A DNA stretch of 40,227 nucleotides from the UHGV virus genome UHGV-0148877. The stretch is one strand, 5' to 3'. Shown piece after piece: positions 2,001-34,598 of the stretch. Every line of letters starts with the position of its first letter. Position 1 is the stretch's first letter. The notes beneath the pieces are model-generated. The model saw only the letters and a list, made by a program, of their open reading frames with translations, ran no database searches and was not told the DNA's origin. The position numbers were made by a program, and so were the translations under genes. The DNA is from a virus.

Positions 2001-2297
2001 TCAAATAGAGAAATAAACACAAAAACAAAAAACAACAGGAACAGCAAAATCCAACAGACTTCCCACATCCCACACGCGTGGATCAAAACCTCCCCACCAC
2101 GGCATGTTGATACGTTTCCCTTTCCCAAACTTTTCTATCCAGCGATATTCTGCCTGGGTGTGTTCACGCGCAATGAAGAACGTACAACCGGCTATCGCAC
2201 CGTAAGCCCAGTTTCCGGTAAAAATACCAACCAGTACCTGAGCCACAAAAGCGCAAAGCGAGTGAAGAAATGGAGTGACATCAATGCTCTTAATCAT
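2001..2297 (-). CDS. Small membrane protein translationally coupled to the tailspike gene
   Basis: 98 aa; ATG overlaps the tailspike stop (ATGA); two hydrophobic segments; function unknown. Confidence 0.45.
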   Translation of the reverse strand: MIKSIDVTPFLHSLCAFVAQVLVGIFTGNWAYGAIAGCTFFIAREHTQAEYRWIEKFGKGKRINMPWWGGFDPRVWDVGSLLDFAVPVVFCFCVYFSI

Positions 2298-4483
2298 GAA
2301 ACTTCCCCATTGGTTGAAAATATGGCTCCTCCAACGCCAAGTGTATTTCGTGTTGTGCTCAACCTCAGAGGGCTGGAGTCAGAATTAGAATATCCTGTAG
2401 CAGAAATAAAAGATCCTCCACTAATAGTCAACTGCGGAACATCGGCTATATCTGAATAAGTTCTGTCAGCAACAGTATTATTTATAGCCACATATGATCC
2501 AAAAAAACTTCTTATTGTTTGGTTTTTAACTTTACTTCCTTCAATGGTTATCCTACTACCACAGTCGGCAATAAATCCTGAATCTGCATCCAGCGTTGCA
2601 TTCATAAAAGAAGCTTCAGCTCTCTCTACATCAATCCATCTAATATCTTTTGTGGGATTTGCACCAAATACATGACAAATATTAGAGTTAAACCTTACAC
2701 CATCTTGGAGGTGCATTAATTTTTTTATATCTGTACCCCATAGCCTTGGAAAATTAACAGATGCTCCTGCATGGCAATCAAATCCCAGCTCAGCCCCTGA
2801 GATATCTACAGCCTTTCCTGAAATAACAGCACCAGTGTCTGCATTAACGGCTGTTCCACAATTGCGCATATCATTACCAGCAACATCAACGCAACCCGCA
2901 CCATCAATACGCACACCAAGTGCACATCCATAAAAACCTTTTTCAATATTTGGTTCAAGGACTTTACCACTTGTTTCTGCATCACTTTCTTCAACGTCAT
3001 GTCGTCTTGCATCAACATATGCTGTATGAATGCAGGTTAATCCACGATATGAGCAATGTATAGTTTTATGGTCGCGTATATTAACATTTGAACCATCTCT
3101 TACATTCCATCCTATATAACAATAGCTTGCACTTGACCCCTGAAAATCTGCTTTAACATTATAAATACAATTAACTGACGCAACCGTACTCTCTGTGCAC
3201 CGTTCAAACTTGCTTACAGGCATTGATGCCTTGACATTATTTACCAGTTGCAGGGAAGAGTATCTGCTATAAGAAAAATCACATACGTAATACCCTTCTG
3301 GCATATATGCAGCAACACTTTCCTCATCAGGAGCACATCCGGTATGATATGCACTAATTTTTGCACCAAAACTACCATGAATTCCAACGTAGAACTTTCG
3401 AGCACCTGAATACGGATAGAAATTAAGTTCAGCTTTTTGAGTTACAATAAATGCACAAACATCGCTATCATCTCTATTTTCTTCGATCTGAATAGCAAAT
3501 ACAGGACTTTTTGCTGCATCGCAAATGTAAAATAAATACTTGTATTCGTAATACGTTCTAACGATTTTAGTAAACAAACGAGTGTCAGAGAAAACCACTG
3601 AGTCTTCTGATGTTATTTTAATCCAAGACAAATCAACACCTGAACTGAATTCAATTTGATAGTTGATAATATGCCCGGTCTTAATTCTTATTTCGCAGAA
3701 AGCATTACCACCATCCCACATAGGTCTCATTGACTGGGCTGCAATGATTGCATCTTTGAGTGTAGGGTAATCACCCCATTCGCCAACAGTAATAACAAAA
3801 GTATAATATGAGTTAAAAACAGCGGCATTTTTGCCTTTGGATATCAACTCCTTAATCATAAAAATATTATCTTCGTAATCACAAGGAGAAATTATATCCC
3901 TCATTTTGCTTTGAAATGTTCGTTGTCTTGCCCCGCTTCCTGACGGTATAAACCAACCAAAACCACCAACAACCCCGGCGATTGCAGCATCGACATAATT
4001 ACGCATTGAGCGATTATTTACAGCGTCCTGCTCAAATGATGGATCTGCAAGGTTAGAAATTTTGTTTTGCTTTGCATCGTAATATTTTGCAAGCAAAGAT
4101 GGTTTCATCAATGCACGTCTGAACCACCCAAAACATCGCTGGATCAGCATCGTCAGGTAGTCAAATGCATCTTCATGAACTTCGGGGAAAAATTTTCCCT
4201 GATTGCGAAGATCAGTCTCCTGCACCACATCAAGCACACGCTCTATCGTAATTCGCCAGCCAGCAGCAAGCGGAGACGGAAGAACCACAGAACCGCCACT
4301 ATAAGTGCCCGCCCCAGTTACCGTATAACCGGTATCCAGAACCAATTCTGTTACGTTCCCGTTCAGGTCAGACACCTGAACAACCAGGTCTGATTTTTTG
4401 AAAATACGAAAAGTATACGGAAACGATGTCGTAACGCCGTTACCTGTGTATTCGTTGTGGTCAACTTCGGTTGAGACCGTCAT
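2294..4483 (-). CDS. Tailspike / receptor-binding protein
   Basis: 729 aa; N-terminus MTVSTEVDHNEYTGNGVTTSFPYTF resembles the conserved particle-binding domain of podovirus tailspikes; rest is Gly/Ser/Asn-rich as in beta-helix depolymerases; ATG with GGAG RBS; the C-terminal two thirds is visibly more AT-rich than flanking DNA. Confidence 0.8.
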   Translation of the reverse strand: MTVSTEVDHNEYTGNGVTTSFPYTFRIFKKSDLVVQVSDLNGNVTELVLDTGYTVTGAGTYSGGSVVLPSPLAAGWRITIERVLDVVQETDLRNQGKFFPEVHEDAFDYLTMLIQRCFGWFRRALMKPSLLAKYYDAKQNKISNLADPSFEQDAVNNRSMRNYVDAAIAGVVGGFGWFIPSGSGARQRTFQSKMRDIISPCDYEDNIFMIKELISKGKNAAVFNSYYTFVITVGEWGDYPTLKDAIIAAQSMRPMWDGGNAFCEIRIKTGHIINYQIEFSSGVDLSWIKITSEDSVVFSDTRLFTKIVRTYYEYKYLFYICDAAKSPVFAIQIEENRDDSDVCAFIVTQKAELNFYPYSGARKFYVGIHGSFGAKISAYHTGCAPDEESVAAYMPEGYYVCDFSYSRYSSLQLVNNVKASMPVSKFERCTESTVASVNCIYNVKADFQGSSASYCYIGWNVRDGSNVNIRDHKTIHCSYRGLTCIHTAYVDARRHDVEESDAETSGKVLEPNIEKGFYGCALGVRIDGAGCVDVAGNDMRNCGTAVNADTGAVISGKAVDISGAELGFDCHAGASVNFPRLWGTDIKKLMHLQDGVRFNSNICHVFGANPTKDIRWIDVERAEASFMNATLDADSGFIADCGSRITIEGSKVKNQTIRSFFGSYVAINNTVADRTYSDIADVPQLTISGGSFISATGYSNSDSSPLRLSTTRNTLGVGGAIFSTNGEVS

Positions 4484-4586
4484 GTTAAATCTCCAGATAG
4501 TCGCAGCACCCGTTGCGCCGCATATCTGGTTATTCTATTACCTGAAAAACCACATATGGATAGAAAGGATGTAAATACGAATAGAT

Positions 4587-5817: not shown

Positions 5818-6082
5818 TTTACATCGCACTCCTCTTGTGCCATAGTAATCGGGCACTGGCAAAATCCAGTGCCGGGATTGGCGTCCCGAGTTACTACAGA
5901 GGCACATATGCCGCATAAGCGGTTTTTTTATGTGTAAAGCGCACCTATTCTATGGTGGGCTGTGTGGGGGCACCGAAAGGTGCGCCGGGTCCTTTGTAGC
6001 CGGTTACGCCAACCCTGCACAGTTCACCACCAACCGATTGGCGTCGGTAGTGGTGATTAACCTAACTACAAAGGTGATCGCT

Positions 6083-6769
6083 ATGACTGCTAACGTAACC
6101 CCATCTGTTTTTCATTTTGAATCAGAAGCAACCATTCGAGCCATTGTTATTGATGGAAATCCTTGGTTTGTTGCCAAAGACGTTATTAAAGCTCTTCAAC
6201 TGACAAACCCCACTATGTCAATAAAATCTCTTGATGATGATGAAAGGGCTAAATTTAACTTAGGCCGTCAAGGCGAAACCAATATTATCAACGAGTCAGG
6301 CCTCTACACACTGATCCTCCGCTGCCGCGACGCAGTGACACCAGGCACTATCCCCTACCGCTTTCGTAAATGGGTTACAGGTGAGGTTCTTCCTCAGATC
6401 CGCCGCACCGGAAGTTACATTAAAAACTCGCTCCCGCAGGAAGAACGCATAAAGATGGTTGCCGACCAGGTAGCCAACGCCACGGCGTCAGCAGTAATGC
6501 AGGCGATGAAGATAGAGAACAAAACCTACAGTGCCCCACTGAAGCCCGGCTACCGCAGCCTGATTCATTCGCCGTCTGGTGTTCTCGGCCTGACGGAGAA
6601 CTCACTGCTGATGAATCTGCTGAACCAGTTACAGGACGACGGGCACGACGTATCGGGCGCGGCGGCGGAGCTGACCACCATGTTCTGCTACATCGTCGGT
6701 GTGAGCAAATGCCTGCGTGATATCCAGACGCACGCGGAGTACATCAACGACAAGGCAGGGTTCTTCTGA
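6083..6769 (+). CDS. Antirepressor with Bro-N domain
   Basis: 228 aa from the ATG at 6083 (AAGGTGA RBS); N-terminus IRAIVIDGNPWFVAKDVIKAL matches the Bro-N pattern; C-terminal domain paralogous to the 4680-4937 product. Confidence 0.8.
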   Translation: MTANVTPSVFHFESEATIRAIVIDGNPWFVAKDVIKALQLTNPTMSIKSLDDDERAKFNLGRQGETNIINESGLYTLILRCRDAVTPGTIPYRFRKWVTGEVLPQIRRTGSYIKNSLPQEERIKMVADQVANATASAVMQAMKIENKTYSAPLKPGYRSLIHSPSGVLGLTENSLLMNLLNQLQDDGHDVSGAAAELTTMFCYIVGVSKCLRDIQTHAEYINDKAGFF

Positions 6770-8755: not shown

Positions 8756-11700
8756 CTATTTCATCTGCTCTTCAACTTTATTTAGTAATGGTGATATCGC
8801 CCACAGATTCTGAAAAGGTAGCATTTTACGGACAGCGTGGGTTTGCTGGCTGTCAAATTCTCCGTTAAGTACACCATTTGCAACCGTCGCGGCATCACCG
8901 CCAAGATCAAAGGTAGGACCAAGTAAAGCACCAATAGCATTACGACTCTGAAACCTTGATACCGGAGGCGCACCAAACATCGCGCCAAGACCAAACCTAC
9001 CGCCGCTTATGTTCTCAACGGTATTCAGCGGCTCAGAGAGCCAGCCAAGCATTCCGCCCCGGTCGATCCCCTCTTTCACAAGGTTATTCCAGCTGTAGTC
9101 GATATCGCGACCGCTTAACTTCTGTTTCATCATATAGACCATTGAGCCAAGCGCAATCGTGCCAAGCGCACCAAGATAGAATGCAGCATCGCCCTGCTGG
9201 ATACCAGATACCAGCACCCTGTTATGCTGTGCGAAGATAAACGTTTTGAACTGCGTGATCATCTTCCAGCCTTCTTTACTAAAAAACAGCGGTGTATCAC
9301 CTACGCCAGGCGTTACAATCACTGAGTCTACATCTTTCAGCACTGCAGACTGGAAAATCTCTCTAGCGAAACGGTCATCCCACAGATGACTATGCCCGGT
9401 TAACAGCCCGTCCATATCCTCTCCGTGCTTCCCGAATTGCTCCCCGATTCGGCGCAGAACATCTTCATTGATGCCGACCTGTGCCATCTTCCGCATTTCA
9501 CTTTTGGAGAGCGTGCCACCAGCAGAAACTTGGCGAGCCGCGTCAAGTATCCTCGACTGCACTATCATCCCAGACCATGATTTAAGTGCGCTGTTCCACT
9601 GATTCATCAGCGTCCAGTTACCGAATTTCTGCGTCATCCAGTTCAGACCTCGCTCAGCGGCGCTTCTCCGGCTATAGGGGTCAGTAAGATCCGCTATAGC
9701 CTTTGTACGCGTAGACAGGACATAATCAAGCCCAACTGCCATTTCTCGCAAATCCCTGGTTGCAATTTTCACTGAGTCCATATTTTTAAGCATGCTTACC
9801 ATTGGTCCGAGAGATTTTCTCAGGCCATGCTGCATCATCGGTCGCATCAGATCAGTTGCAGCGGAGACAGTCATTCCACCAAGCAAACGGAGGAAGTTAA
9901 TATTCCTAGCAACTCGCCCGGCACGAACAAAGAAACTGCGTGGATCTTGAGGTGCACCGTAAGTACCAAGCAGTCGATCACGCATAGCCGTAATATCCCT
10001 AATATCAGCCTCCCGTTGCTTCTCAAGAACTGCACGTCGTTTAGGTGTTTTAGCCTCTTTTATTAGCCGGGTATATTCCTCACTAACCTGACGGATTTGC
10101 TCCCCCATATCTTTACGGCCAAACTGCGCAGTCAGCTCAATTTCTGGTGCCACCTGCCGGAGATAACTTTCCATGATGTAGTTAACATCTGATTCAAGAA
10201 AATCTTCTATACGCTCATCAGGAATAAGCAGCGTTCTGCTTTTAGTGAAACCAGCCCGACCAACGAGTCTCTCTGGGATAATATCGGCTGGTACAAGCCC
10301 GGAAGGTGCGCCTATTATTTTATTCACGATCTCGTCAGCAGCGTCCTCTGCTTCCTCTCGGGATAGAGGCTCCATCTGCTTCAGTGCTCGCTCGCGGCTT
10401 GCATTCAGCCTTGTGGTTGAATTTGCCCGTTTTTGCAGTCGGCGAAGCTCAGAACGATATTTCCGTGGATTATCCAGCAACTCCATATGGCGCTGATAGA
10501 CAGGAAGCTCACTCTTTGCCTGCGCTATATCATCAAGGCGTGTTTTAAGGTCAGAGCTTTCTTTCATCATTCTTGCCTGAAGTTTTTCTGATGAAGTCTC
10601 GGCCAACTCTTTTTCTATTCTTGTAAGACGCGCCTGTGTGTCAGTCTCCTGAGATATAAGCTTATTTCGTTTATCCAGTTCTTCCATGAGTAGAATTTTT
10701 TTACCAGACCATTTCTCCGCTTCAGCGATTTCACTAGCGAGAGCATCAGCGCGCGGTGCTGATTCCTCTGCAGTTTTTAGCAATGAATTTATCTTTTCAA
10801 TTCGCTGACCTGCTTTGTCAGCACCTTTGGCACTAATCACTTGTATCCAGTTGGCAATTCGCCCTCTGAATTCAGTGCGGTCGGAAAGTATCTTATCGAA
10901 CTTATAAATGCGGGGAAGATAACTCTTCGCCGTCACGACATCGATATCCTCAGGAAGGATCCCCAATTCCTGCATACGGGCTTTTGTGGTCTCAAAAATG
11001 GGGCGGATTCTGGCGGCTGCTTGTGAAACCTCAGGAATATCACTCTGATCACCACGGCGCATAGCCATGCCAACAGCTTCATTGAAATCAATAAAGTTCA
11101 TCCTCTTCACGCCGCGGGCGCTGACAGATTTGCTGTACTGCTGGTAAGCATCACGAGTAGCTTCCATCTGCTTATAAAGCATGGCGTCGTATTGCTTAAT
11201 CTTAGTCTCGACTGCCGTAAACGTAGCCAACCCCTCATCATTTTTGGCGAAGAAATAGTTATTTTCGGCAAGCTGCTGGTTAATCTGACGGGAGACAAGA
11301 GATGGTGATTGCGCCAAGCGGCCAGCAGGAGTGACACTCAACGTTTTGTTAGCAAGTCCAAGTCCAGCGAGCTGTTCCTGATCGAGTGTGGTATTGAAAA
11401 CCTGAGCTGCACCAATGCTTTGAGGAGAATCCATACCTCGCAAATGATTACCTACTGAGTTAACCACTGCCTCGCGCGCGCTAGGTCCAGCAAGTAGCTG
11501 TGCACCAGCACCAAGGATCCCACCAACGAGAGCATCAACAACAACGTTCGATACGCTCTCCATCGGTGAGCGAGCTTCCTGAGTGGCCTGTAATGCGGCT
11601 TCTGATACTCCCCCACCAGCAGCATTCGCCAGGGCAAAACGCCCTGCCGTCTCAGCAATACTTCCTCCACGCGCTACCGCCCCTACAGGGATGAACATTG

Positions 11701-12145
11701 CAGCCACATTAACCGGGTCTATCATTCCCATTGCTAAGCTTGAAATAGTACCAGCACCACCCATTTCAGATAGATATTCTCTATCTGTTCTTTGCTTATC
11801 GATTCGATGTTTAATTGCCATTGTTTCTTCATGCGAACCGGAGTTGATAAACGAATCTGCAAAATCTTCATAGCCTTTAATATCTGCTGCATCGTTATCA
11901 AATGGGTTATATCCTTCAACCCTGTCAAACTGACTGAAAGGAGCACTGGCAATAAAGCTACCCAGCGTGTTATCTATACGAAATGCTGCTTGTCTAGACC
12001 TTTGAACGCGTTGATCACTGGTAAATGGGTTCACAGCAGAAAGCAAAGAAGGTGTTTCCATATAGAAATTACTGTCATCAGGTGCTGCTATTTGCTGAAT
12101 ATCCTCGCCAAGCAACTCTTTAGGATCCTGTTCATATATCGGCAT
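8756..12145 (-). CDS. Large internal virion / ejection protein
   Basis: 1129 aa, largest of three consecutive big proteins after the tail-tube genes, the arrangement used for podovirus internal core (ejection) proteins; long coiled-coil-like central region. Confidence 0.65.
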   Translation of the reverse strand: MPIYEQDPKELLGEDIQQIAAPDDSNFYMETPSLLSAVNPFTSDQRVQRSRQAAFRIDNTLGSFIASAPFSQFDRVEGYNPFDNDAADIKGYEDFADSFINSGSHEETMAIKHRIDKQRTDREYLSEMGGAGTISSLAMGMIDPVNVAAMFIPVGAVARGGSIAETAGRFALANAAGGGVSEAALQATQEARSPMESVSNVVVDALVGGILGAGAQLLAGPSAREAVVNSVGNHLRGMDSPQSIGAAQVFNTTLDQEQLAGLGLANKTLSVTPAGRLAQSPSLVSRQINQQLAENNYFFAKNDEGLATFTAVETKIKQYDAMLYKQMEATRDAYQQYSKSVSARGVKRMNFIDFNEAVGMAMRRGDQSDIPEVSQAAARIRPIFETTKARMQELGILPEDIDVVTAKSYLPRIYKFDKILSDRTEFRGRIANWIQVISAKGADKAGQRIEKINSLLKTAEESAPRADALASEIAEAEKWSGKKILLMEELDKRNKLISQETDTQARLTRIEKELAETSSEKLQARMMKESSDLKTRLDDIAQAKSELPVYQRHMELLDNPRKYRSELRRLQKRANSTTRLNASRERALKQMEPLSREEAEDAADEIVNKIIGAPSGLVPADIIPERLVGRAGFTKSRTLLIPDERIEDFLESDVNYIMESYLRQVAPEIELTAQFGRKDMGEQIRQVSEEYTRLIKEAKTPKRRAVLEKQREADIRDITAMRDRLLGTYGAPQDPRSFFVRAGRVARNINFLRLLGGMTVSAATDLMRPMMQHGLRKSLGPMVSMLKNMDSVKIATRDLREMAVGLDYVLSTRTKAIADLTDPYSRRSAAERGLNWMTQKFGNWTLMNQWNSALKSWSGMIVQSRILDAARQVSAGGTLSKSEMRKMAQVGINEDVLRRIGEQFGKHGEDMDGLLTGHSHLWDDRFAREIFQSAVLKDVDSVIVTPGVGDTPLFFSKEGWKMITQFKTFIFAQHNRVLVSGIQQGDAAFYLGALGTIALGSMVYMMKQKLSGRDIDYSWNNLVKEGIDRGGMLGWLSEPLNTVENISGGRFGLGAMFGAPPVSRFQSRNAIGALLGPTFDLGGDAATVANGVLNGEFDSQQTHAVRKMLPFQNLWAISPLLNKVEEQMK

Positions 12146-14892
12146 TATTTGCCCCCTGCGTATATATTGCTCGGAAGGTAATTGGCTGAACCATAACCGA
12201 ATGGTTTGGTCAGATCTGGAGGAGTATATCCATCTTTATTGCTGAACTGCGGCAGCGGATTGCCTTCTCTCCGCACTCTAGCCTCATCAACACGCTGTTG
12301 CTGGAACTGAATGGTTTGCCTGTACATTGGAGATGTCAGCTGATCCGGCTTGAAACGAACAGGGAGACCATTTTCTCCAATATAATTTCTCGGTTCTATC
12401 GCTCCGTTTGCGTCAGGCTGTAAAACCATAACAGCATAACTCCTATCCCTTGCCGTAAGGCCATCAGAAACAAGTATTAAGTCCGTATCACTGCGAGGAC
12501 CGCCAAAGGATTTTGATTTAAGCTCGCGTTTTTCCTGCTCCCACTGCCCCTGTATCCAGTTACCAGCACCATTATTTACTCCGTACAATGCCTCAGGTGC
12601 ATACTTCATAACCTCTGCTTTGCCATTAACTGTAGAAACTCCCCAGGTGGTTCTGATCATGGCATTGGTCATTTTCTCAGCCTGTTCTGCATCGCCACCT
12701 GTCTGTACAAAGTTAGCATCGTAAATTGTCTGGTAATCTCGCTGATAGGCCGCATTTGATTTTCCTGGATCGGTAATATCCGGAGACCACGAACCAAAGG
12801 AAGTCAGACTGCTGGCGTTATTTTGTGCAGCAGTTGCCCTCGCCGCGACATATTTTTTGTCTCGCATGGCAGTGGAAAGCATCTGTTTCATTCGGTCATC
12901 CTGTTGGAACACCTGGCTGTAAGCCATATCAACAGCCTTATCCTCCGGCACGCCAGCGCGGGAATAATCGTAAACCTTGCCGTAAAATGCCATCGTACTT
13001 TTATCAAGTGTTGCCGCTGCCGCCGGATTATTATCGAATAACTGACCGTAGAATTTTGCCATCGGGACAACCAGCGCAGGATCTCTTGATGTTGCTCCAC
13101 TGTTAAGCATTGTTTTAACCTGAGTTGGTATCATGCCGCTTTTAGTTGTGGCGGTGACCAGTGTATTGATGCTCTGCGGATCAGATATGGAAAACGAAGG
13201 CGCGATATCCTGCGCGAAATAACGGTCTACCGCTGCCTGATTGTTTTTGTCGTTAGGGTCCAGCGGGAAGTTATTTTGCATTGAAGACACGAACCTGTTT
13301 CTTCCCTGCTGAATCTCCCACTCCCTATCCATCTCTTTAAATTTGGCCTGCATTTTCTCCCAGCGTTGCTGGTTAGCTGCAAATCCAGGAGCATTTGGAT
13401 CCTGTGGACGTAAACGTTCAAGAATGTCTTGTCGTCCTTCTGGAGTGAGGTCTTTAGCGGCACCAATGACACCTCCATATTGTATCTGCGCCTGCATATC
13501 CTTCCACTTCATAGCGCCAATGCGCGGACCATTGGCCCGGATAAAATCGTCCTCAGAAGGTAACTTCTCAGGTTTCAATCCTTCATCAAGGGCTGAATAT
13601 GCATCTTTAACTACGGTGCTAAGCTGGTCCGCATACTGCTGGCGGTACTGATTTCTCAGCTCATTAGCCTGCCTCAATGCCTGTATTTGCATTTGAGGGC
13701 TCATAGCGTCAAATGCCGCATTGCCCGTATAACGCTTAGGTGAATCAAGGTTAGTTAGACCAAGGGCTGCCGAGATACCAGTTTCAAGCTGTTCGGTGCT
13801 ATAAGGCATACTGCCATTTTCGTGTTTAATAATCCCAGCACATAAAGCAGCTAGTGTCTTTGGGTTAGAGATATCAAGCTGATCATTCTCCCCAACACCA
13901 AGCTCACTACACAATGCCCTAATATAAGCATCAGTATTATTACCATCACTAGCCGGAGCATAGCGATTAACAATCTCGCTAACGGTGTCATAGCCTTGAC
14001 GCTGGTAAGACAACATATTTTTACCCAACGCGCGGATTCCATGCTCAGGGGTAGCAAACGTTGCAAAACGTCCATCGCTACCGATCTGACCTTCCCACGG
14101 GTTAGATTTGCTCGCTTCAATATTACCAGGGTTATTATTACGTAAACCACGAGCATCCAATGAATTACCATGTGATATTGCACGACTCACACCATCAAGA
14201 TCCCCTGGCTCTCCATTAACCTGAAGAAACTCGTTGTATTTTTGAGCGATATTTCCTATCCATGCTTGCTGCCCCATTTGTTCCTTGAGCTGAGTTTTCT
14301 GCTGAACACGCCACTCATCAGGAAGCCCATGCGCATCAGCGTATTGATCAATAGATTCAAATCGCTGCTTGGCTAAATCGACAAATGCTTGGTTATCGCT
14401 ATATAGCCCCGCAGACTGAGTGACAGCCAATGCATTTCCTGACAAATACGTTTGATCTTGGAATTGCTGAAACTGCCCAACTTCATATCGACGTGCCTGA
14501 TTGTAATAAGACTGCATAGACTGCTGGAGTTGAAAGGATAATTTATTCCTTTCCTCACTTTCAGGAATTGAGCCTAATAATGCCTGAGCCCTTTCCTGCA
14601 TATTTTTCATAACAGCGTCACTCTGACCAAGAGCGTTTTTACCCTGTTTAGAAATCAGCCCATTTTCAGGGTTGTTAATCTGGTCATCTGCAAATTGGTT
14701 AAATTGCAGTAACGCCTCCTGGGCCATAGCAACATTCGCTTTCTGCCTAGCTTCACCATATGCCACCGCATACTGATCTGCGACATTCGCCAGCACCTGA
14801 CCTGCTTGAGGAACATCGAAGGTCTGAAAACCACCGGTTTGCACACCACGACTTTGCACCTGGCGTCCGGATGTAGTAGGAACAACAGGCAT
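12145..14892 (-). CDS. Internal virion protein with putative peptidoglycan-hydrolase domain
   Basis: 915 aa; contains GLRNNNPGNIEASKSNPWEGQ...FATFATPEHGIRALGKNML, recalled as a virion-associated muralytic-domain signature; start overlaps the downstream gene stop. Confidence 0.65.
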   Translation of the reverse strand: MPVVPTTSGRQVQSRGVQTGGFQTFDVPQAGQVLANVADQYAVAYGEARQKANVAMAQEALLQFNQFADDQINNPENGLISKQGKNALGQSDAVMKNMQERAQALLGSIPESEERNKLSFQLQQSMQSYYNQARRYEVGQFQQFQDQTYLSGNALAVTQSAGLYSDNQAFVDLAKQRFESIDQYADAHGLPDEWRVQQKTQLKEQMGQQAWIGNIAQKYNEFLQVNGEPGDLDGVSRAISHGNSLDARGLRNNNPGNIEASKSNPWEGQIGSDGRFATFATPEHGIRALGKNMLSYQRQGYDTVSEIVNRYAPASDGNNTDAYIRALCSELGVGENDQLDISNPKTLAALCAGIIKHENGSMPYSTEQLETGISAALGLTNLDSPKRYTGNAAFDAMSPQMQIQALRQANELRNQYRQQYADQLSTVVKDAYSALDEGLKPEKLPSEDDFIRANGPRIGAMKWKDMQAQIQYGGVIGAAKDLTPEGRQDILERLRPQDPNAPGFAANQQRWEKMQAKFKEMDREWEIQQGRNRFVSSMQNNFPLDPNDKNNQAAVDRYFAQDIAPSFSISDPQSINTLVTATTKSGMIPTQVKTMLNSGATSRDPALVVPMAKFYGQLFDNNPAAAATLDKSTMAFYGKVYDYSRAGVPEDKAVDMAYSQVFQQDDRMKQMLSTAMRDKKYVAARATAAQNNASSLTSFGSWSPDITDPGKSNAAYQRDYQTIYDANFVQTGGDAEQAEKMTNAMIRTTWGVSTVNGKAEVMKYAPEALYGVNNGAGNWIQGQWEQEKRELKSKSFGGPRSDTDLILVSDGLTARDRSYAVMVLQPDANGAIEPRNYIGENGLPVRFKPDQLTSPMYRQTIQFQQQRVDEARVRREGNPLPQFSNKDGYTPPDLTKPFGYGSANYLPSNIYAGGK

Positions 14893-22205: not shown

Positions 22206-22488
22206 TGGCCTCTTTGGCCATCTTTAAATACTGTTCAGGGCAATGCGCCATAACGCGCTGAAACAGTTCCAGCGCCAGATTGCGTTGCCCCTCATTAAAT
22301 GCCATAGCCATAGCGTCCATCGGTGAGATAGCAGAAAACACACGGCCTTTCTCCAGCACCGACCAGACAACGCGACGCCCCTGTTCACTGCTCATGACAA
22401 AGCGAATGTCATCAATTTCACGCTGTGCCATGTCACGTTGCTTACGGGCGTTTTCTTCTTTCAGTTGATCGTCTTCGTAATCTGTCAT
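22192..22488 (-). CDS. Hypothetical head-module protein
   Basis: 98 aa ORF whose start overlaps the portal stop. Confidence 0.4.
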   Translation of the reverse strand: MTDYEDDQLKEENARKQRDMAQREIDDIRFVMSSEQGRRVVWSVLEKGRVFSAISPMDAMAMAFNEGQRNLALELFQRVMAHCPEQYLKMAKEASEQR

Positions 22489-24164
22489 TGTGATTGCCCA
22501 CCCTGACCACTAACTGCATTCGCCATAGCTGACAAAACACTCGGATCCGAAGTTTTAGCTTCGCTTAGCGTCTTGGCACCCTGTGCCGCCGCCATCCCCA
22601 TCGCCATCATTTGTTGCTGCTGTTGTTGCTGTGCCCGTTGCTGGCGAGCCTGCTCAACCTGTTCCTGCGGAACAATGACGGTTGGAGACACTCCGGACAT
22701 ATCAGCGAATGCATCGATCGCCTGATCAACGTTGAGTTTGTCGAGAGCTTCTGGTTTCGCTTGCGCAAGTTGACCAATGAAGTTGACCGTGGATGCCAGA
22801 CTGGACAGGCCGATAGACTTCTGCGCCTGAGCCATGACGGAAATGTATTCGACCTTCAGGGGCATACCTTCCATCGCGTCAGGCGGTGGCGGCAGCATGT
22901 TTTTACGCACCATCATCGAGAAAGCGCGGTCAATGAGAGGATTAAGACATTCGTCGTTCAGACGCTCCAGAACCGGCCCCAACATCAGAAGTTTTTCTTC
23001 TTTCATTTCGATCACCGCTTCAACAGGCATCGAGCGGGTATTGATGTTCTGCAACATCATGAACAGATCGACAAAGTAGGCGCTGTTAATGATTTGGCGA
23101 GTGTCCTGAATGTCTGCCACCAGATCTGCTGTACTGGGGTTAACCAGATAAGCAGGCCTGAAACCATCCTGACCAGTAATCTGATCGATATACGTGATGT
23201 CGCCAGGAAGAAGGGAGGCGCGCTGATTCTTGAGGGAAGTCGGAGCAACCATCGGCGGATTGGTGGCTTTATCAATCAACTGCGACTTGCGCTTCTGGAG
23301 AAGCTGCAATGCCTTAACAGGTCCAAGCGCCAGCATACCCGGGCATGATGATCCATAAACATCTTCGCCATTAACTTCCCAGCGCGGAGCCATAATTGGA
23401 AACTCATCGAATCCGGACTCACGCAACAACTTGTCGTTATCGCCACCAACCTCGTAATAAACCGATTTGAATGGCTTGTTCTTGCTATCCAGCTTCGATG
23501 TATCGCGGTCAATGTTCGGGTAAACCGAATGCATCACTTCGATCCACTTCTCGTAGGTGCCGCTTTCCCACATGCTTTTTACGGATTCGCTGACGTTATT
23601 TAGCCCGAACTCCTGAACAAGCTGACGAACAGTCATAGAGAACTTGCGAAAACAGGTGTCAACACTGCCACGAGGTGAGTTAGCCAGGTAGTAACTGCCT
23701 ATCGGGAATGGCATTGTGCGAATGATGTCCTCGTCATCCTCCAGCACTGCCATTGCACCGGTGCTGTATGTGCCGAGGCTTCCGTATAACTGCGGAAGAG
23801 ACTGGTAGAGATTCGACTTATTGAACATATCGTTCATGCGGTTCTGCACCGCCTCAAGCCACAACTTAACAGGGCCATAATCCATCATTTCAGGATCTGG
23901 CGTAGCCAGGCGAAACCACGGACGCGCGGGGCTTGTGATGCCTGACATCATGCCGCTGGCGAGAGTGCGCGCCGCCATAGTCCCGGTCGAATCAATAATA
24001 CGTGTATTGCGTCGATCGTTACGGTTGACCTCAGAAGTCAGAAAGCGGGAACCACGCGGGTTGATGTAATCACTCAACTCGCGCCAGTGCGGCTCGAACG
24101 ACTGACGCTCGCTTTCAAGTTGTGCGAACTGTTTGTTCAATCGCTCTTTAGTTGTTTCCGCCAT
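22485..24164 (-). CDS. Portal protein
   Basis: 559 aa; placed after TerL; C-terminal poly-Gln/Ala tail (QARQQRAQQQQQQQMMAMGMAAAQGA). Confidence 0.8.
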   Translation of the reverse strand: MAETTKERLNKQFAQLESERQSFEPHWRELSDYINPRGSRFLTSEVNRNDRRNTRIIDSTGTMAARTLASGMMSGITSPARPWFRLATPDPEMMDYGPVKLWLEAVQNRMNDMFNKSNLYQSLPQLYGSLGTYSTGAMAVLEDDEDIIRTMPFPIGSYYLANSPRGSVDTCFRKFSMTVRQLVQEFGLNNVSESVKSMWESGTYEKWIEVMHSVYPNIDRDTSKLDSKNKPFKSVYYEVGGDNDKLLRESGFDEFPIMAPRWEVNGEDVYGSSCPGMLALGPVKALQLLQKRKSQLIDKATNPPMVAPTSLKNQRASLLPGDITYIDQITGQDGFRPAYLVNPSTADLVADIQDTRQIINSAYFVDLFMMLQNINTRSMPVEAVIEMKEEKLLMLGPVLERLNDECLNPLIDRAFSMMVRKNMLPPPPDAMEGMPLKVEYISVMAQAQKSIGLSSLASTVNFIGQLAQAKPEALDKLNVDQAIDAFADMSGVSPTVIVPQEQVEQARQQRAQQQQQQQMMAMGMAAAQGAKTLSEAKTSDPSVLSAMANAVSGQGGQSQ

Positions 24165-24178
24165 TTCAATGACTCCGG

Positions 24179-24385
24179 TTACTGACCAAGTAGCGTTTTA
24201 CCGCTGGTATTAGCGGTTGATGTGTCGCCCTGAGAACCGGTAAGCAGCGTAGAACTACGACCAGCAGCAGCGCGACGGCGACGTGTTTCTTCGTCGCGGG
24301 CATCAACAACGGCGGCATCCTGCTCCTGTGGTGCTGCCTGAACTTCTGGTGTTGCAGGCACTGATGGTGAGCTACCCATGCACAT
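24179..24385 (-). CDS. Small low-complexity protein upstream of portal
   Basis: 68 aa, Ala/Arg/Pro/Thr-rich; ATG with GGAG RBS 9 nt upstream; ends 12 nt before the portal start. Confidence 0.3.
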   Translation of the reverse strand: MCMGSSPSVPATPEVQAAPQEQDAAVVDARDEETRRRRAAAGRSSTLLTGSQGDTSTANTSGKTLLGQ

Positions 24386-24474
24386 ATCAATGACTCCGTA
24401 CGCAATTAAATTATTACCAATTTAACCACATATGATTTATTTATCGTAGATAGTTGACATTTAACGCACAAATT

Positions 24475-24491
24475 ATTACCTTTCAGGTAAC
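24475..24491. promoter_or_regulatory. Operator palindrome ATTACC-TTTCA-GGTAAC, with a TTGACA hexamer at 24454-24459
   Basis: Perfect TTACC-N5-GGTAA core; same TTGACA-then-palindrome arrangement as at 34689-34733; oriented toward the plus-strand tRNA. Confidence 0.55.
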
Positions 24492-24812
24492 TAAAGAGTT
24501 CATTCCGGTTGCTAACCTGACTGGCTTGTCGTTAAATTGAACAGGTGGAGTGAGCTTTTGTTTTGAGCAGTACGGCGTATGGCACATGCGCCGATAGCGG
24601 TCTGGATACGTTTAAGGGGCACCCTCCCTTGCTCGGGCAAACGAACCAGGTAGCCGGAATGTGCAAGTCGAGCGGTTTTATTCCGCGCACGGGGATTCAC
24701 CATCCCGGCGATTCGGTGTGACGCCTCGGAAGAGACGAGGGTACAACGATGAGAGCATTTATGGAGCCGCGACAAAGTGTGGCGCCTTAACAGGCTAAGT
24801 GCTCTCAGCGTT

Positions 24813-24889
24813 GTGGCATTAGCTCAGTTGGACAGAGCAACCGCCTTCTAAGCGGTTGGTCGCAGGTTCGAATCCTGCATGCCACGCCA
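24813..24889 (+). tRNA. tRNA-Arg (anticodon UCU)
   Basis: 77 nt folded by hand: 7-bp acceptor stem GTGGCAT/ATGCCAC, D stem GCTC/GAGC, anticodon stem ACCGC/GCGGT with loop CTTCTAA (anticodon TCT), T stem GCAGG/CCTGC with loop TTCGAAT, discriminator G, encoded CCA. Confidence 0.9.
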
Positions 24890-24932
24890 GAATCACGCCT
24901 AAGGACCGTGATGCCAGAAGTTCCAGGTGCTT

Positions 24933-24975
24933 GGCGGTGATGGTTTCCCTTGAAGGACTATCACCGCCCTTTTTA
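24933..24975 (+). terminator. Intrinsic terminator downstream of the tRNA
   Basis: GGCGGTGAT...ATCACCGCC inverted repeat followed by CTTTTT. Confidence 0.5.
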
Positions 24976-25052
24976 CAGCAGGACGCCATTGCGATGACTT
25001 CATGCTGTAAACCAGTACAGCCACGGAAGGCATAACTCATTGCTTCCAGTTC

Positions 25053-25076
25053 GCCCGGTTCGCCGGGCATTTTTTT
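25053..25076 (+). terminator. Intrinsic terminator (second, stronger)
   Basis: GCCCGG-TTCG-CCGGGC perfect 6-bp stem with tetraloop, followed by A and TTTTTTT. Confidence 0.6.
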
Positions 25077-25205
25077 AAGGTGTGAATCATGAAATACGAA
25101 TTCGATGGATTTTGATGTCGTGACATGTCACAAACAGCCAGCCGATGAGCTGGCTTTGTTTTATCCTCACCAGAGGATATCAGCAGCATTATCCCCTCCA
25201 GAGGA

Positions 25206-26681
25206 TTAAGCATAGGGATCGTAATCTGTAATGGCCTTGCCTTGCTGGTTCTGCTGACCGGGAATTCGCAGACGCTTCGACACCGGGAAAGCAAACGTCA
25301 GCAGTAGCGCATCGCCTTTACCCGGCGAACGCCCAAGCCGCTCCTTGATATCTTCCTTCGGTTCGATAACGATTTTACCGTCCACGCGAACTTTGTACTC
25401 TGCCGCCGACAGGTCGTCCGCTGTTTCCTGGTCATCCAGCATGCCGCCCAGCCTCAGCCATGTCTTGCATGCATTGAACATCTCCCCACGCTTGTTAAGC
25501 ATCTGCGGGTCAGTGGACGCACCGCCGAACGGAACAAGTTGCCATGTACGTCCCCAGCCATCACCGATTGACTTCAAACCGGTTCCGTAACCGAAGTCGA
25601 TGAACACCGCGTCAGCCTGGTACTGGTCTTCAAAGTCAGCGATACGCTTCGCCATAATCAGATCGTCGGTGGTCTTGTTGCCAGTCCACAACACCTTACT
25701 GTGCAGCCCCTGCCGCAGGTATATCACAGCGTCATCAACGCCGGAGTATGCAGGGTCAACGCCGATTATCACCGGAGCATGTGCCACCTGCGCAGCAGTT
25801 ACCACCCGTTTCATTGCCTCGTCAGTAAGACCGGTAGGGATAAACTGCAATTCAGATGCATCAGGGAATATGCCGCGCACACGGATTTTAACGAAGTCGC
25901 TGTCTTCCCCGTAGTCATCAACCCATTTCTGCAACTGCTGTTTGTTGGTGCCTTCCACCGTCCGGCTGTCAATCTGCGCAGTTTTCCAGCGGTGTTTATA
26001 TTTGCGGAAACATTCGCGGAAACGCCCGGTATTACGCGTCGGGTTCCCGAACGCCACCCAGATGATTTCGGTGTCTTCGTCCGTCAGCGCACCCTCTGCT
26101 ACCTCCCACACCAGATCGGCAATGTTGGATGCTTCGTCGAAAACCACGATGATGCGTTTGCGCTCGTTGTGTAGTCCGGCGAATGCCTCAGTGTTGTGCT
26201 CAGACCAGGGGATTGCGTCAGCTCGCCACCGCTTGTCGTGCCCAGGATCATTGCTGTACATCGCGGTAGCGGTACAGGTAAACCAGTCTTTCGTGATGGC
26301 AAGGTTCGACCACTTGATAATTTCCGGCCAGGTCTTCGTTCGTAGCTGGTTGTCGGTGTTGGCGGTCACCACGACCTTACAATCCTCGCAAGTGGACATG
26401 CCCCAGTTGATCAGCATTGAGATGAATGCGGATTTACCAATACCGTGACCAGAAGCGCGTGCCAGCATAAGCGGCTGATATCGCGTCTCTGGATTCTGCA
26501 GGTGATCACGTATCTCTCGGAACGCATCGGCCTGCCACTGACGTGGACCGGTGGCATGTGCCAGTTCAGTACCCTCTTCCCCCCACGGGAACGCATAGAG
26601 GGCATAGCCAAGCGGATCGTGAGTGAACCCTGCAATATCCTCGATCAACTGCTCTTCAGGAGATAACGCTGTATCTGTCAC
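25206..26681 (-). CDS. Terminase large subunit
   Basis: 491 aa; N-terminal ATPase region with a Walker A-like GHGIGKS and C-terminal nuclease-like region; start (GTG with AGGATGG RBS) overlaps the TerS stop. Confidence 0.85.
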   Translation of the reverse strand: MTDTALSPEEQLIEDIAGFTHDPLGYALYAFPWGEEGTELAHATGPRQWQADAFREIRDHLQNPETRYQPLMLARASGHGIGKSAFISMLINWGMSTCEDCKVVVTANTDNQLRTKTWPEIIKWSNLAITKDWFTCTATAMYSNDPGHDKRWRADAIPWSEHNTEAFAGLHNERKRIIVVFDEASNIADLVWEVAEGALTDEDTEIIWVAFGNPTRNTGRFRECFRKYKHRWKTAQIDSRTVEGTNKQQLQKWVDDYGEDSDFVKIRVRGIFPDASELQFIPTGLTDEAMKRVVTAAQVAHAPVIIGVDPAYSGVDDAVIYLRQGLHSKVLWTGNKTTDDLIMAKRIADFEDQYQADAVFIDFGYGTGLKSIGDGWGRTWQLVPFGGASTDPQMLNKRGEMFNACKTWLRLGGMLDDQETADDLSAAEYKVRVDGKIVIEPKEDIKERLGRSPGKGDALLLTFAFPVSKRLRIPGQQNQQGKAITDYDPYA

Positions 26682-31549: not shown

Positions 31550-31566
31550 TTTACCCCTGAGGTAAT
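31550..31566. promoter_or_regulatory. Operator palindrome TTTACC-CCTGA-GGTAAT
   Basis: Perfect TTACC-N5-GGTAA core abutting the start codon of the 31203-31547 gene. Confidence 0.5.
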
Positions 31567-31611
31567 TAAAAACCACATAAGACACGAAATCAATAGATTT
31601 TAGAATATTTT

Positions 31612-34013: not shown

Positions 34014-34598
34014 ATGAAAAGTATCCAGGACGTCCGCAGGCAAAATCTCAACGACTTGATCGACCGTGAATTCAATGGTGTTCAGACGCGGATGGCTGAA
34101 AAACTTGGAACTCAGGCAAATCTGGTAAACCGCTGGGCTCTTGGCAAGAAGGTTATCGGCGACCAGGTTGCGCGAAAAATTGAAGCTGCCGCCAATAAAC
34201 CCCGTAACTGGCTTGATATCGATCGCTCGCTTTCTCAGGAAGGTTTTCAGCCTGTCGGCCCGAGTGATATAGGTCAGCTGGCTGCTCACAACCTGGAACG
34301 CTGGATGAGCGAAAGCCGCGACCTTTCAACGCAGGGAAAACTACACCGCGCATCCGGCGTCGCCCAGGTGACAATCAGCCGCCTGTTAAACAATGAGGTC
34401 AGCGTTTCCATTTCCACCCTGGAGAATGTTGCATCCGCATTCGGGCGTCATGGCTATGAATTACTGATTCACCCGCACGACCCTGCGACTATCAACTATG
34501 ACCGCTCGCGCTACGCATTGTTACCCGAAACCGAGAAAGCAAAGATCGAAAGTTACATTGAATTTGTCATCAACCAGAACGAAAAAAACAAACAATAA
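34014..34598 (+). CDS. Prophage repressor (CI-like, HTH; no S24 peptidase domain evident)
   Basis: 194 aa; N-terminal HTH (GVQTRMAEKLGTQANLVNRWALGKK) and a second HTH-like segment (ASGVAQVTISRLLNNE); divergent from cro-like gene; flanked by operator clusters; followed by a terminator. Confidence 0.7.
   Translation: MKSIQDVRRQNLNDLIDREFNGVQTRMAEKLGTQANLVNRWALGKKVIGDQVARKIEAAANKPRNWLDIDRSLSQEGFQPVGPSDIGQLAAHNLERWMSESRDLSTQGKLHRASGVAQVTISRLLNNEVSVSISTLENVASAFGRHGYELLIHPHDPATINYDRSRYALLPETEKAKIESYIEFVINQNEKNKQ

Follow-up and report, generated by a model that had tools for sequence, protein, structure and literature searches.

Positions 24454-25076 of the phage genome analysed here, a stretch of 40,227 nucleotides (the window), hold a non-coding transcription unit that is probably controlled by the phage repressor and expressed early. 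The unit represents a mobile RNA module that many enterobacterial temperate phages carry. Its leader contains, at 24570-24812, a member of a widespread structured RNA family that is supported by covariation. The family has no match in Rfam, and no published description of it was found.

The antisense transcription unit and its tRNA

The phage of the window is of the epsilon15/phiV10 type (Uetakevirus). The unit lies on the plus strand between the terminase and portal genes, antisense to all of the genes that flank it: the portal gene (22485-24164; PF12236, E 1.6e-187), a gp3-like ORF between the portal gene and the tRNA unit (24179-24385), and the gene named TerL in the annotation of phiV10 and phiv142-3 (25206-26681), all on the minus strand. 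The main elements described in the earlier note are borne out, namely a plus-strand tRNA-Arg(UCU) inside minus-strand genes, an upstream TTGACA, a perfect operator palindrome, a hairpin-rich non-coding leader of about 320 nt, and two intrinsic terminators.

A candidate sigma-70-type promoter (24454-24482, plus strand) consists of the -35 hexamer TTGACA (24454-24459), which agrees with the consensus at six of six positions, a 17-nt spacer, and the -10 hexamer TACCTT (24477-24482), which agrees at only three of six (A2 and T6 are kept) and for this reason was not called by the promoter scan. The arrangement TTGACA/TTGACC-17-TACCTT/TACCCT is kept 5' of the RNA in all Uetakevirus-type homologues, and the promoter position predicts a transcription start at about 24489. 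The -10 hexamer and the predicted start are overlapped by a phage repressor operator, ATTACC-TTTCA-GGTAAC (24475-24491), with the core palindrome TTACC-N5-GGTAA at 24476-24490. With at most one mismatch, the palindrome occurs 13 times in the window against 0.52 expected, a number reached in none of 100 shuffles; the copies include pairs on either side of an HTH repressor-like ORF (34014-34598), and the GenBank record of epsilon15 annotates the homologous 17-mer as protein_bind 'repressor'. The set is predicted to be the operators of the phage's own repressor. Because the operator overlaps the -10 hexamer, regulated expression is plausible, and a repressor-controlled promoter implies early rather than late expression, a correction to the earlier note. 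The hybrid ATTACC-N5-AACCAC copy reported upstream is indeed present (TTACC-N5-AACCAC, 24414-24429, plus strand), but an equal number of matches was obtained in 3 of 100 shuffles, so that as an operator site it is no better than chance and was rejected. The transcript would begin with a 5' stem-loop (24494-24559, plus strand; MFE fold), whose homologous stretch carries an RNase III site in the epsilon15 annotation.

The tRNA-Arg(UCU) (24813-24889, plus strand, CCA encoded) is the sole tRNA found in the window by ARAGORN, with the anticodon tct at position 35, and the Rfam tRNA model (RF00005) scores 73.3 bits here, well over its gathering score (29). Its identity to E. coli argU is about 84%; the D arm, the anticodon loop, and the T arm are retained, the differences in the acceptor and anticodon stems are compensatory (paired), and G73-CCA is encoded. 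Several genome records show spurious ORFs over the tRNA/RNA region or place the tRNA on the wrong strand, and the annotation of this region is in need of correction. The codons AGA and AGG are roughly three to four times commoner in the phage than in E. coli. Most of them fall in tail, injection, and early genes, and the capsid, portal, and terminase genes have hardly any. The tRNA would be expected to supplement AGA/AGG decoding where these codons are heavily used, and the suggestion that it aids the translation of late genes therefore holds only in part. Phages are known to carry rare-codon tRNAs, including the argO/argN tRNA-Arg(UCU) of Stx phages. The present tRNA resembles these in its anticodon and in the richness of the phage in AGA/AGG; it differs in being embedded in an RNA module, in other copies of which non-tRNA domains fill the slot.

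The 3' trailer of the tRNA carries the hairpin P8, AAUCACG-CCUAAGGA-CCGUGAU (24891-24912, plus strand), which was found in 39 unique homologues from several contexts, 3' of a tRNA or a tRNA-like domain. Two intrinsic terminators follow, both called on the plus strand with T runs by the terminator scan (at 24933-24968 and 25053-25068). T1 (24933-24976), with a 14-bp stem, CUUUUUAC, is part of the conserved module, and lambdoid as well as Uetakevirus copies share its motif GGCGGU...ACCGCC(C)UUUUUACA; T2 (25053-25076) has a GC-rich 6-bp stem and U7. The antisense placement of the unit might, as the earlier note proposed, interfere with read-through from TerL into portal; read from the sequence, neither T1 nor T2 has a T run on the minus strand. 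A third hairpin with a T run (25136-25165; called at 25136-25155) was found by the plus-strand terminator scan at the 3' end of TerL, and the phiV10 annotation gives its counterpart as a minus-strand terminator after TerL. Plus-strand hairpin energies at 24933, 25053, and 25136 are -22, -11, and -10 kcal/mol, respectively.

Alignment with phiV10 places an empty cargo slot on the plus strand at 25077-25135. The same slot in phiV10 holds a 123-aa gene of the gp49/66 family (PF13876), while here it contains only an 8-codon mini-ORF (25089-25115) behind AAGGTG; the idea that this ORF is a stub of phiV10 p03 was ruled out by the alignment, and the slot is simply empty. The cargo behind T2 is exchangeable, being PF13876 in phiV10 and a Tad2-like gene (PF11195) in a Klebsiella phage, and a Tad2-like gene is also found 3' of the core in P1-like elements. 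In relatives the cargo ORFs (gp49/66 family, Tad2-like) begin 8-34 nt past T2 and have no promoter of their own. As the slot is empty in the window, the products of the unit are the RNA and the tRNA only. The unit is not fully self-contained, given the cargo after T2 in relatives, and it is not a private tRNA gene with a long leader, as the RNA also occurs without a tRNA and, in P1, behind another tRNA. Like a moron, the unit has its own promoter and terminators, sits between the terminase and portal genes, and has variable cargo. Unlike morons, which are expressed in the lysogen, it has a repressor-controlled (early) promoter, and its terminators lie upstream of the cargo rather than after it.

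Fold and covariation of the structured RNA

It had been suggested that the leader might hold a second RNA, and 24570-24812 is indeed a member of a covariation-supported RNA family. The leader as a whole (24492-24812, 321 nt) folds better than its shuffles (z = -2.7, none of 100 as good; reverse strand z = -1.6). The RNA is pseudoknotted and measures about 240 nt overall, with a core at 24570-24747 and a P6 domain that extends to 24814. The core is found by covariance model R1 on the plus strand, as a single copy in the window, with 147.9 bits (E 7e-44). The RNA comprises six helices, the pseudoknot included, together with a further long-range helix and an invariant 19-mer. In the core alignment the helices, all on the plus strand, are P1 (24573-80/86-93), P2 (24602-04/47-49 and 24608-12/40-44), the variable P3 (24672-86), P4 (24692-95/24703-06), the pseudoknot (24698-701/24715-18), and P5 (24724-28/36-40). 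The 19-mer, GGUAGCCGGAAUGUGCAAG (24649-24667, plus strand), is identical in 11 homologues that were found by BLAST and chosen without regard to it, and exact matches number at least 120 in viral contigs and 24 in GTDB species representatives.

Across 50 sequences, 93% of the helix cells pair, compared with 31-47% when the partners are slid, and in 17 pairs both partners change (147 cells). Covariation scores 0.33, compared with 0.05-0.07 for slid and 0.15 for shuffled partners, and none of 500 shuffles reached the observed score. In the same 50 sequences the pseudoknot pair is CG in 44 and AU in 6, and helix P1 shows a clean G-C/A-U swap (24 versus 25 sequences). The abundant G-U pairs are compatible with the plus strand only. 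Indels in the core are not multiples of three and lengths vary regardless of codon phase; the indel phase and the substitution pattern rule out the core as a coding region. RNAalifold gave an alternative in which the 19-mer pairs with the helix P1 region, based on invariant columns only. This was rejected as the main fold, since the local P1 hairpin has the support of the swap, and was retained as a possible second conformation.

The 3' domain (24743-24814, plus strand) is formed by helix P6a (ACAAC 24743-47 with GUUGU 24810-14), which overlaps nucleotides 1-2 of the tRNA, and helix P6 (24748-59 with 24798-809), which together close a variable insert (24759-97). Of 134 unique homologues, 82 have this module, and their inserts measure 35-170 nt. 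A per-sequence helix test shows that P6 is kept by compensatory change, with a mean helix of 10.2 bp compared with 8.55 +/- 0.31 bp when partners are swapped. A boxA-like UGCUCUU lies in the 3' strand of P6; being base-paired and varying by covariation, it is unlikely to be a NusB/E site.

At the locus, scans with Rfam 15 (4227 models) at gathering and at permissive thresholds recovered the tRNA alone; the leader matched no curated family in the window even at E <= 10. Nor did the RNA match any Rfam model at E <= 1 at the cdtI, P1, and Klebsiella loci. Literature searches on put-like and antiterminator RNAs, P1 ban/trnI, phiV10/epsilon15, and prophage structured RNAs returned no description of it, and the 19-mer was found in no paper, the only literature matches being unrelated 14-mers in C. 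elegans papers. A preprint on the Pas sRNA was considered as a prior description and set aside; it covers small Hfq sRNAs beside structural genes, and its text has no match to the RNA.

Distribution and genomic settings

The RNA family is present in 1,840 of 5,426 complete E. coli genomes (about one third) and is annotated in none. It occurs in P1, in Stx2c and Stx2a phages, in cdt phages, in epsilon15-like phages, and in a Lastavirus, and by exact 19-mer matches among GTDB species representatives it is confined to the Enterobacterales. The E. coli K-12 prophage CPS-53, which carries the same yfdP-yfdQ-yfdR genes, lacks the RNA, so that K-12 transcript maps are of no help. No protein gene accompanies the RNA as it moves among unrelated phage families, which argues for action on a conserved host machine.

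Where lambdoid phages without an N gene carry the RNA, it lies directly 3' of the terminator of the cI gene and of PL, the early-left promoter. In phage cdtI the cI stop and a terminator are followed by PL (TTGACA-16-CATAAT; its operators resemble those of OR), and the RNA lies about 45 nt further on; no N gene is annotated, and xis and the early-left genes lie behind the terminator that follows the RNA. About 60 lambdoid contexts have the RNA without any tRNA, and the covariance model found no second, PR-side copy in the lambdoid loci and no other copy in the window. In Uetakeviruses the RNA lies 5' of a tRNA-Arg. Overall, a tRNA-Arg is found 3' of the RNA in about 30 loci and a tRNA-Ile2 5' of it in about 17; in many other loci a variable domain closed by GUGG/CCAC adjoins the RNA, in some with a T-arm remnant.

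In P1 the core (137 bits, unannotated) lies between trnI and ban, inside the early ban operon, which is controlled by C1 operators; it is thus a true core homologue under a repressor-controlled promoter, together with tRNAs. This copy has no P6 domain, no 3' tRNA, and no terminators. It is 71 nt 5' of ban with no terminator between, which makes it a leader there and not a separate gene, and the annotated promoter is 2.6 kb away. In epsilon15 the core has shrunk to a 74-nt remnant, and the cargo gene is still behind the terminator.

Among 114 unique loci, a promoter with a strong -35 hexamer lies 4-130 nt 5' of the RNA in lambdoid and Uetakevirus contexts, and the gene 5' of the RNA encodes an S24/HTH repressor from at least four unrelated clusters. 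Most loci other than P1 have an intrinsic terminator 90-230 nt 3' of the core. The next ORF preceded by an SD begins a median of 136 nt past the last terminator (78 loci), a distance of 8-34 nt in many Uetakevirus-type loci. The best promoter-like score in the gap between terminator and ORF has a median of 7.0, compared with a background of 7.5 and with 9.5 upstream of the RNA (78 loci).

Possible functions of the RNA

It is tentatively proposed, with slightly less than an even chance of being right, that the structured RNA acts in cis, carrying RNA polymerase through terminators, as a functional analogue but no relative of HK022 put. The unit would be silent in the lysogen and fire upon infection or induction. 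An RNase P cut at the 5' end of the tRNA (GUU|GUGG) would free the structured RNA from the tRNA. The RNA would act on the same polymerase that makes it, allowing read-through of the module's own intrinsic terminators, and would probably also give Rho resistance along the long untranslated stretch. The polymerase could then reach the early-left operon in N-less lambdoid phages, the Tad2-like and gp49/66 genes in Uetakeviruses, and ban in P1. This proposal is supported by the promoter-proximal site, by terminators followed by promoter-less genes, by the exchangeable cargo, by the lack of an annotated N gene in cdtI, and by the place of the core as a leader of ban in P1. Several observations speak against it. 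The module's own conserved terminator fits a stand-alone RNA gene equally well, and leaky termination could suffice for the downstream genes. There is one copy per genome and none near PR, unlike the putL and putR of HK022, and no likeness to put in sequence or structure. The P1 copy is far from its annotated promoter, epsilon15 has cargo behind a terminator despite its remnant core, and the window keeps an intact RNA although it offers no downstream target for antitermination.

A processed, stable RNA acting in trans on a conserved host component, in host takeover or anti-defence, is the less likely but serious alternative; here the tRNA or tRNA-like domain would set the end of the RNA by serving as a processing handle, the terminator would be the end of the RNA gene, and downstream genes would be reached by leaky termination. 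It would account for the module's own conserved terminator and the conserved hairpin after the tRNA, for the tRNA or tRNA-like domain that adjoins the RNA in most contexts, and for the intact RNA beside an empty cargo slot, and the 19-mer, being long, invariant, and single-stranded, points to a conserved partner that binds it. One precedent is the C4 RNA of P1/P7, which is matured by RNase P. GOLLD and ROOL, large phage RNAs beside tRNAs (PMC12286853), provide another. Action in trans leaves unexplained the near-constant first place of the RNA after a repressor-controlled promoter and the placing of promoter-less genes, among them an entire lambdoid early-left operon that contains xis, directly after one or two strong terminators; moreover, P1 has no terminator, and the RNA there is the 5' leader of ban. 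A layout in which a promoter is followed by a pseudoknotted domain with invariant unpaired nucleotides, an intrinsic terminator, and genes would also suit a riboswitch-like or T-box-like sensor of a metabolite, a tRNA, or the host state that decides whether early transcription stops at the terminators, and the alternative pairing of the 19-mer with helix P1 hints at two conformations. Such a sensor is improbable, given that the terminator is 90-230 nt from the core with a variable domain or a whole tRNA between them and is absent in P1, that inspection revealed no conserved alternative pairing between core and terminator, and that no Rfam riboswitch matched even at E <= 10.

The leader adjoins the tRNA directly, with P6a reaching into it, and is co-transcribed with it, as would be expected of a mere long 5' leader of the tRNA precursor that aids stability or processing; this is very improbable, as copies of the same RNA, with the invariant 19-mer and compensatory changes, stand without a tRNA in lambdoid phages and behind another tRNA in P1, and the leader sequence is conserved as strongly as the tRNA. 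That the conservation reflects a DNA-level site (for recombination or protein binding) or a small protein gene is hardly credible. The module is mobile between phage families, its GUGG/CCAC boundaries resemble recombination joints, and stop-free stretches of about 40 codons occur in a GC-rich segment; against this, helix-specific compensatory changes and strand-specific G-U pairs indicate an RNA, the indels of the core do not respect codon length, and the heavily curated P1 record annotates no ORF here.

Returning to action in cis, the closest comparison is put, which suppresses termination in a factor-independent manner by binding the zinc-binding domain of the RNA polymerase beta' subunit. 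The lambdoid copies of the RNA occupy the putL/nutL position, just 3' of the repressor-controlled PL and 5' of terminators, with no N annotated, and like put the RNA has no dedicated protein gene. In the whole HK022 genome, BLAST with the leader gave chance matches only and the covariance model gave none. The RNA measures 165-240 nt, with six helices and a pseudoknot, whereas put has two stems and a triplex within about 70 nt (PMC9378689). Unlike put, it is a single copy with none at PR, its range extends to Uetakeviruses, P1-like phages, and a Lastavirus, it comes with a tRNA or tRNA-like domain and its own terminator, and its role in antitermination is only proposed. It resembles lambda N/nutL and the rrn boxA as a promoter-proximal signal ahead of terminators, and the rrn leader in that it precedes a long untranslated structured RNA (the tRNA) that would be exposed to Rho; in contrast to lambda N/nutL, it has no boxB hairpin and no N gene. 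Like GOLLD and ROOL, it is phage-borne, non-coding, complex in fold, and often beside tRNA genes, but it is much smaller, has no Rfam match to them, is restricted to Enterobacterales, and is fixed behind early promoters.

It is possible, though we hold this broader claim with slightly more reserve than action in cis itself, that the RNA represents a new class of RNA-only device, not related to put and much commoner than it, which reprograms host RNA polymerase through processive antitermination, Rho resistance, or both. Temperate phages that lack N would use it as the standard 'ignition leader' for their early operons and for anti-defence and tRNA cargo expressed early. To our knowledge, HK022 put and its phage family are essentially the only known source of RNA-only antitermination. 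If the RNA is a second, unrelated RNA-only antiterminator, it would alter the view of how the early programme begins in temperate phages of enterobacteria, among them Stx and cdt phages of medical relevance and the much-used P1, and it would provide a compact genetic part with which expression could be made proof against terminators. If it instead acts in trans, few unannotated structured RNAs in E. coli genomes would be as prevalent, and its tRNA or tRNA-like partner domain would tie it to the unsolved problem of GOLLD and ROOL.

A tRNA-Arg unit under a phage operator

Over the 1.2 kb surrounding the tRNA unit, identity is 97-98% with Escherichia phages phiv142-3, HEMP4 and phiV10 and with other Uetakeviruses, and the window is, judged by its sequence, a Uetakevirus-type (epsilon15-like podovirus) phage. 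The minus-strand neighbours of the unit in Uetakevirus records are the terminase large subunit (TerL), a small gp3-like gene and the portal protein, there annotated as "head-tail adaptor" or "connector"; in the window the portal ORF (559 aa, 22485-24164, minus strand) matches Pfam Head-tail_con (E 1.6e-187). The unit is non-coding, consisting of an operator on a promoter, a structured RNA supported by covariation, a sound tRNA, and terminators. ARAGORN confirmed the tRNA-Arg(UCU) of the earlier note as the only tRNA in the 40 kb window (24813-24889, plus strand, anticodon tct), as did the Rfam scan that the note had proposed (tRNA model, 73.3 bits). This tRNA looks functional because, aligned with E. 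coli argU, it retains the D arm, anticodon loop, and T arm, carries paired changes in the acceptor and anticodon stems, and encodes G73-CCA.

Upstream, the TTGACA described earlier was found at 24454-24459; a predicted -10, TACCTT (24477-24482, plus strand), lies 17 nt 3' of it, but is weak and was rejected by a promoter scan. The operator palindrome, TTACC-N5-GGTAA at 24476-24490, also held up; the window has 13 copies of this palindrome, against 0.5 expected. The -10 hexamer doubles as the left half of the operator, so that binding of repressor and of polymerase should be mutually exclusive here. The 12 other copies, often paired, lie at 4588, 5709, 5802, 6842, 27274/27292, 31551/31613, 33896/33944 and 34656/34718; they flank a helix-turn-helix (HTH) repressor-like ORF (34014-34598) and occupy several other intergenic sites. 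Several adjoin TTGACA, and the one at 34718 is preceded by TTGACA-N17-AATTAT. The epsilon15 GenBank record marks the homologous 17-mer as a site for repressor binding, and the scattered copies recall the dispersed C1 operators of phage P1. The "hybrid" operator copy proposed at 24414, in contrast, amounts to no more than chance. A short motif, AACCACATA, lies beside operator half-sites at 4538-4553, 24414-24429 and about 31566-31580, and is not significant alone.

Elsewhere in the window, the copies at 5709 and 5802 flank an Rfam match to the Hfq-binding RNA isrK (74 bits) followed directly by the antisense RNA C4 (79.5 bits; together 5853-6034, plus strand), extending from just ahead of a 279-aa ORF (5930-6769) into its start. 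Together these make up an antirepressor control module of the P1 immI/Gifsy type; the lambdoid phage cdtI (locus L006, 277-465) likewise carries an isrK and C4 pair.

Downstream of the tRNA, both expected plus-strand terminators, T1 and T2, are present as a hairpin and T run at 24933 and 25053, and a third follows at 25136; this last hairpin is annotated in phiV10 as a minus-strand terminator after TerL. Because T1 and T2 lack a T run on the minus strand, they should not stop late TerL-to-portal transcription. The 86-nt tRNA trailer (24890-24975, plus strand) comprises a hairpin, P8, and T1 with its U tail; in form it resembles a 3'-external-transcribed-spacer-type small RNA, which tRNA processing would release.

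Window ORFs use AGA at 7.6 and AGG at 6.1 per 1000 codons; in E. coli the figures are about 2-3 and 1-2. The excess falls in tailspike-like, injection, and tail genes (2294-4483, 8756-14892) and several early genes, while AGA and AGG are almost absent from the capsid, portal, and terminase genes. The suggestion that the tRNA aids late-gene translation thus fits the tail and injection genes but not the latter group. Given this distribution, an early supply of tRNA-Arg(UCU) could reasonably help translation, without being directed at the most strongly expressed late genes in particular.

A widespread structured RNA in the tRNA leader

The earlier note had also suggested that the leader could hold a second RNA, and the leader indeed belongs to a widespread structured RNA family supported by covariation. 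The structure was tested on an alignment of 50 sequences (A3; 66% mean column identity), and comprises in its plus-strand core a 5' hairpin (P1), a two-part P2, a small P4, a P5 hairpin with a GAAGAGA loop, and a pseudoknot in which the P4 loop pairs with a downstream GGUG. Overall, 93% of cells pair (31-47% when partners are slid), and 17 of 29 pairs are altered on both sides (147 cells). The covariation score is 0.33, against 0.05-0.07 for slid and 0.15 for shuffled controls, and none of 500 shuffles attained it. One pair of helix P1 is A-U in 25 sequences and G-C in 24; a pseudoknot pair is C-G in 44 and A-U in six. In 82 of 134 unique homologues a long-range helix, P6 with P6a (24743-24759 with 24798-24814), encloses an insert that varies from 35 to 170 nt; the helix is maintained through compensatory changes. 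The covariance model derived from this 50-sequence alignment scored the window copy at 147.9 bits and found exactly one copy per locus. In epsilon15 it found a 74-nt deleted remnant (locus L007, NC_004775.2, 2548-2621; internally deleted, 39 bits); the operator, the terminator with a gp49/66-like gene downstream, and the 5' hairpin, which the record labels an RNase III site, all persist in this phage.

On sequence comparison, the unit as far as its first terminator shows itself to be one conserved module. The conserved GUUGUGG is followed either by tRNA-Arg, whose acceptor stem begins at that GUGG, or by a variable domain of 70-150 nt closed by GUGG(U)/(A)CCAC(AAC). Some variable domains hold a T-arm remnant (GGUUCGAUUCC) or a D-arm-like hairpin, and that of cdtI is predicted to fold into a three-hairpin, cloverleaf-like junction. 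From this comparison of what follows P6, the tRNA slot is therefore filled elsewhere by tRNA-like or decayed-tRNA domains. Next come the conserved hairpin P8, AAUCACG...CGUGAU (24891-24912, plus strand), and the module terminator, GGCGGU...ACCGCC(C)UUUUUACA, represented by T1 in the window. The GUU|GUGG junction is a plausible candidate RNase P site, at which cleavage would free the upstream RNA.

BLAST with the leader alone found stretches of 77-83% identity in phages unrelated to Uetakeviruses, including the lambdoid cdtI, mEp460, Ayreon and 2H10, several Stx2c and Stx2a converting phages, P1, P7, D6, SJ46, RCS47, and Klebsiella, Salmonella and Enterobacter phages. Beneath the stretches listed there was almost always no annotation, with occasional "hypothetical protein" calls. 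The 19-mer GGUAGCCGGAAUGUGCAAG (24649-24667) is invariant throughout these homologues; relatives were fetched with it, so that more divergent ones would escape. It has exact matches in at least 120 IMG/VR contigs and in 24 GTDB species representatives, all Enterobacterales except for two MAG bins, which are probably contaminated. These bins are labelled Oscillospiraceae and Bacillota (L144, CAVAHD010000024.1; L156, JAIIAN010000430.1); the covariance model finds a full-scoring copy in L156 (165 bits) and a fragment in L144 (13 bits). "Stenotrophomonas phage BUCT708" (L012, OM816834.1) carries a copy nearly identical to enterobacterial prophage copies, and contamination or host misattribution seems likely for all three. 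The element is present in 1,840 of 5,426 complete E. coli genomes (1,473 at ≥80% coverage), with no annotated feature beneath it in any of the matches listed. Rfam 15 contained no family matching the leader even at E ≤ 10. An incomplete literature search found no description of the element, and an account may exist elsewhere.

Recurring genomic settings

Three settings cover nearly all of about 114 unique loci. In the lambdoid setting (about 60 loci), an S24/HTH cI-type repressor gene, drawn from at least four unrelated clusters, is followed by its terminator, PL, and the RNA. In cdtI the cI stop (2382) and terminator (2394-2411) precede PL (2421-2448, TTGACA-16-CATAAT, overlapped by OR-like operators), the core starts at about 2499, and between a strong terminator (about 2866-2912) and a yfdP-like gene (3049) there is no promoter-like site. 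No N gene is annotated in cdtI, yet its early-left operon, including xis, sits behind this terminator.

In the Uetakevirus setting (about 30 loci, the window included), TTGACA-17-TACCTT with the operator leads into the RNA, tRNA-Arg, T1, and T2, and a variable protein gene starts 8-34 nt past T2. The cargo gene of phiV10 (L002, 3994-4365) belongs to the gp49/Sf6-gp66 family, that of Klebsiella phage ST512-KPC3phi13.3 (L008, 2511-3032) encodes a Tad2-like (Thoeris anti-defence) protein, and other relatives have ORFs of various sizes here; in the window the slot is empty (25077-25135, plus strand; 59 nt with an 8-codon mini-ORF). In the P1-like phage-plasmid setting (about 17 loci), tRNA-Ile2(CAU) precedes the core alone, with ban 71 nt further on or a Tad2-like gene, and these copies lie within the C1-operator-controlled ban operon. 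Across 78 loci, no promoter-like site above background was found between the last terminator and the next ORF preceded by a Shine-Dalgarno sequence; by our own simple scripts, which made the promoter and terminator calls in these comparisons, the median score for this gap was 7.0, compared with 7.5 for random windows and 9.5 for the stretch that precedes the RNA.

Several public records have annotation problems here. In phiv142-3 (L001, MN187550.1, 3720-3788) the tRNA-Arg is annotated on the wrong strand; in phiV10 (NC_007804.2, 3720-3971) the tRNA feature is absent and a hypothetical ORF, p04, covers it on the opposite strand; and in Tyrion (L010, 2211-2372) an ORF is annotated across the RNA 3' domain. 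The upl-tciA intergenic region of the P1 ban operon (L005, NC_005856.1, 1558-1677) holds a match to the sRNA family STnc100 of 33 bits, below the gathering score of 47.

Possible roles of the RNA

We infer that the unit is expressed early and silent in the lysogen. Our leading reading, held tentatively and at somewhat less than even probability, is that the RNA acts in cis on the transcribing polymerase as a functional analogue of put, the RNA-only antitermination RNAs of HK022. It is favoured because in almost all cases the RNA is the first element to be transcribed and terminators follow, because promoter-less genes lie directly behind these, up to a whole N-less lambdoid early-left operon, and because in phage P1 the RNA is simply the ban leader. 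Polymerase would then read through the terminators, and the long untranslated RNA would probably be protected from Rho. The likeness to put would be one of function only, as no homology was found: the covariance model has no match in HK022.

The chief rival account, less probable, is a processed, trans-acting RNA, with the tRNA or tRNA-like neighbour as processing handle and the conserved terminator as gene end. Such an RNA would fit the intact copy in the cargo-less window and would resemble GOLLD and ROOL, large phage-associated RNAs found beside tRNAs, but it leaves the promoter-less genes behind the terminators unexplained. We consider a sensor or riboswitch improbable and a mere tRNA leader very improbable. 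Least credible of all is that the conservation marks a DNA site or a small ORF: many of the G-U pairs would turn into A-C if the opposite strand were transcribed, so that the plus strand is the RNA, and core lengths vary among homologues without regard to codon phase.

The RNA is a mobile module, placed by different phage families behind repressor-controlled early promoters. Because it has spread without an accompanying protein gene, its distribution suggests action on a conserved host machine.
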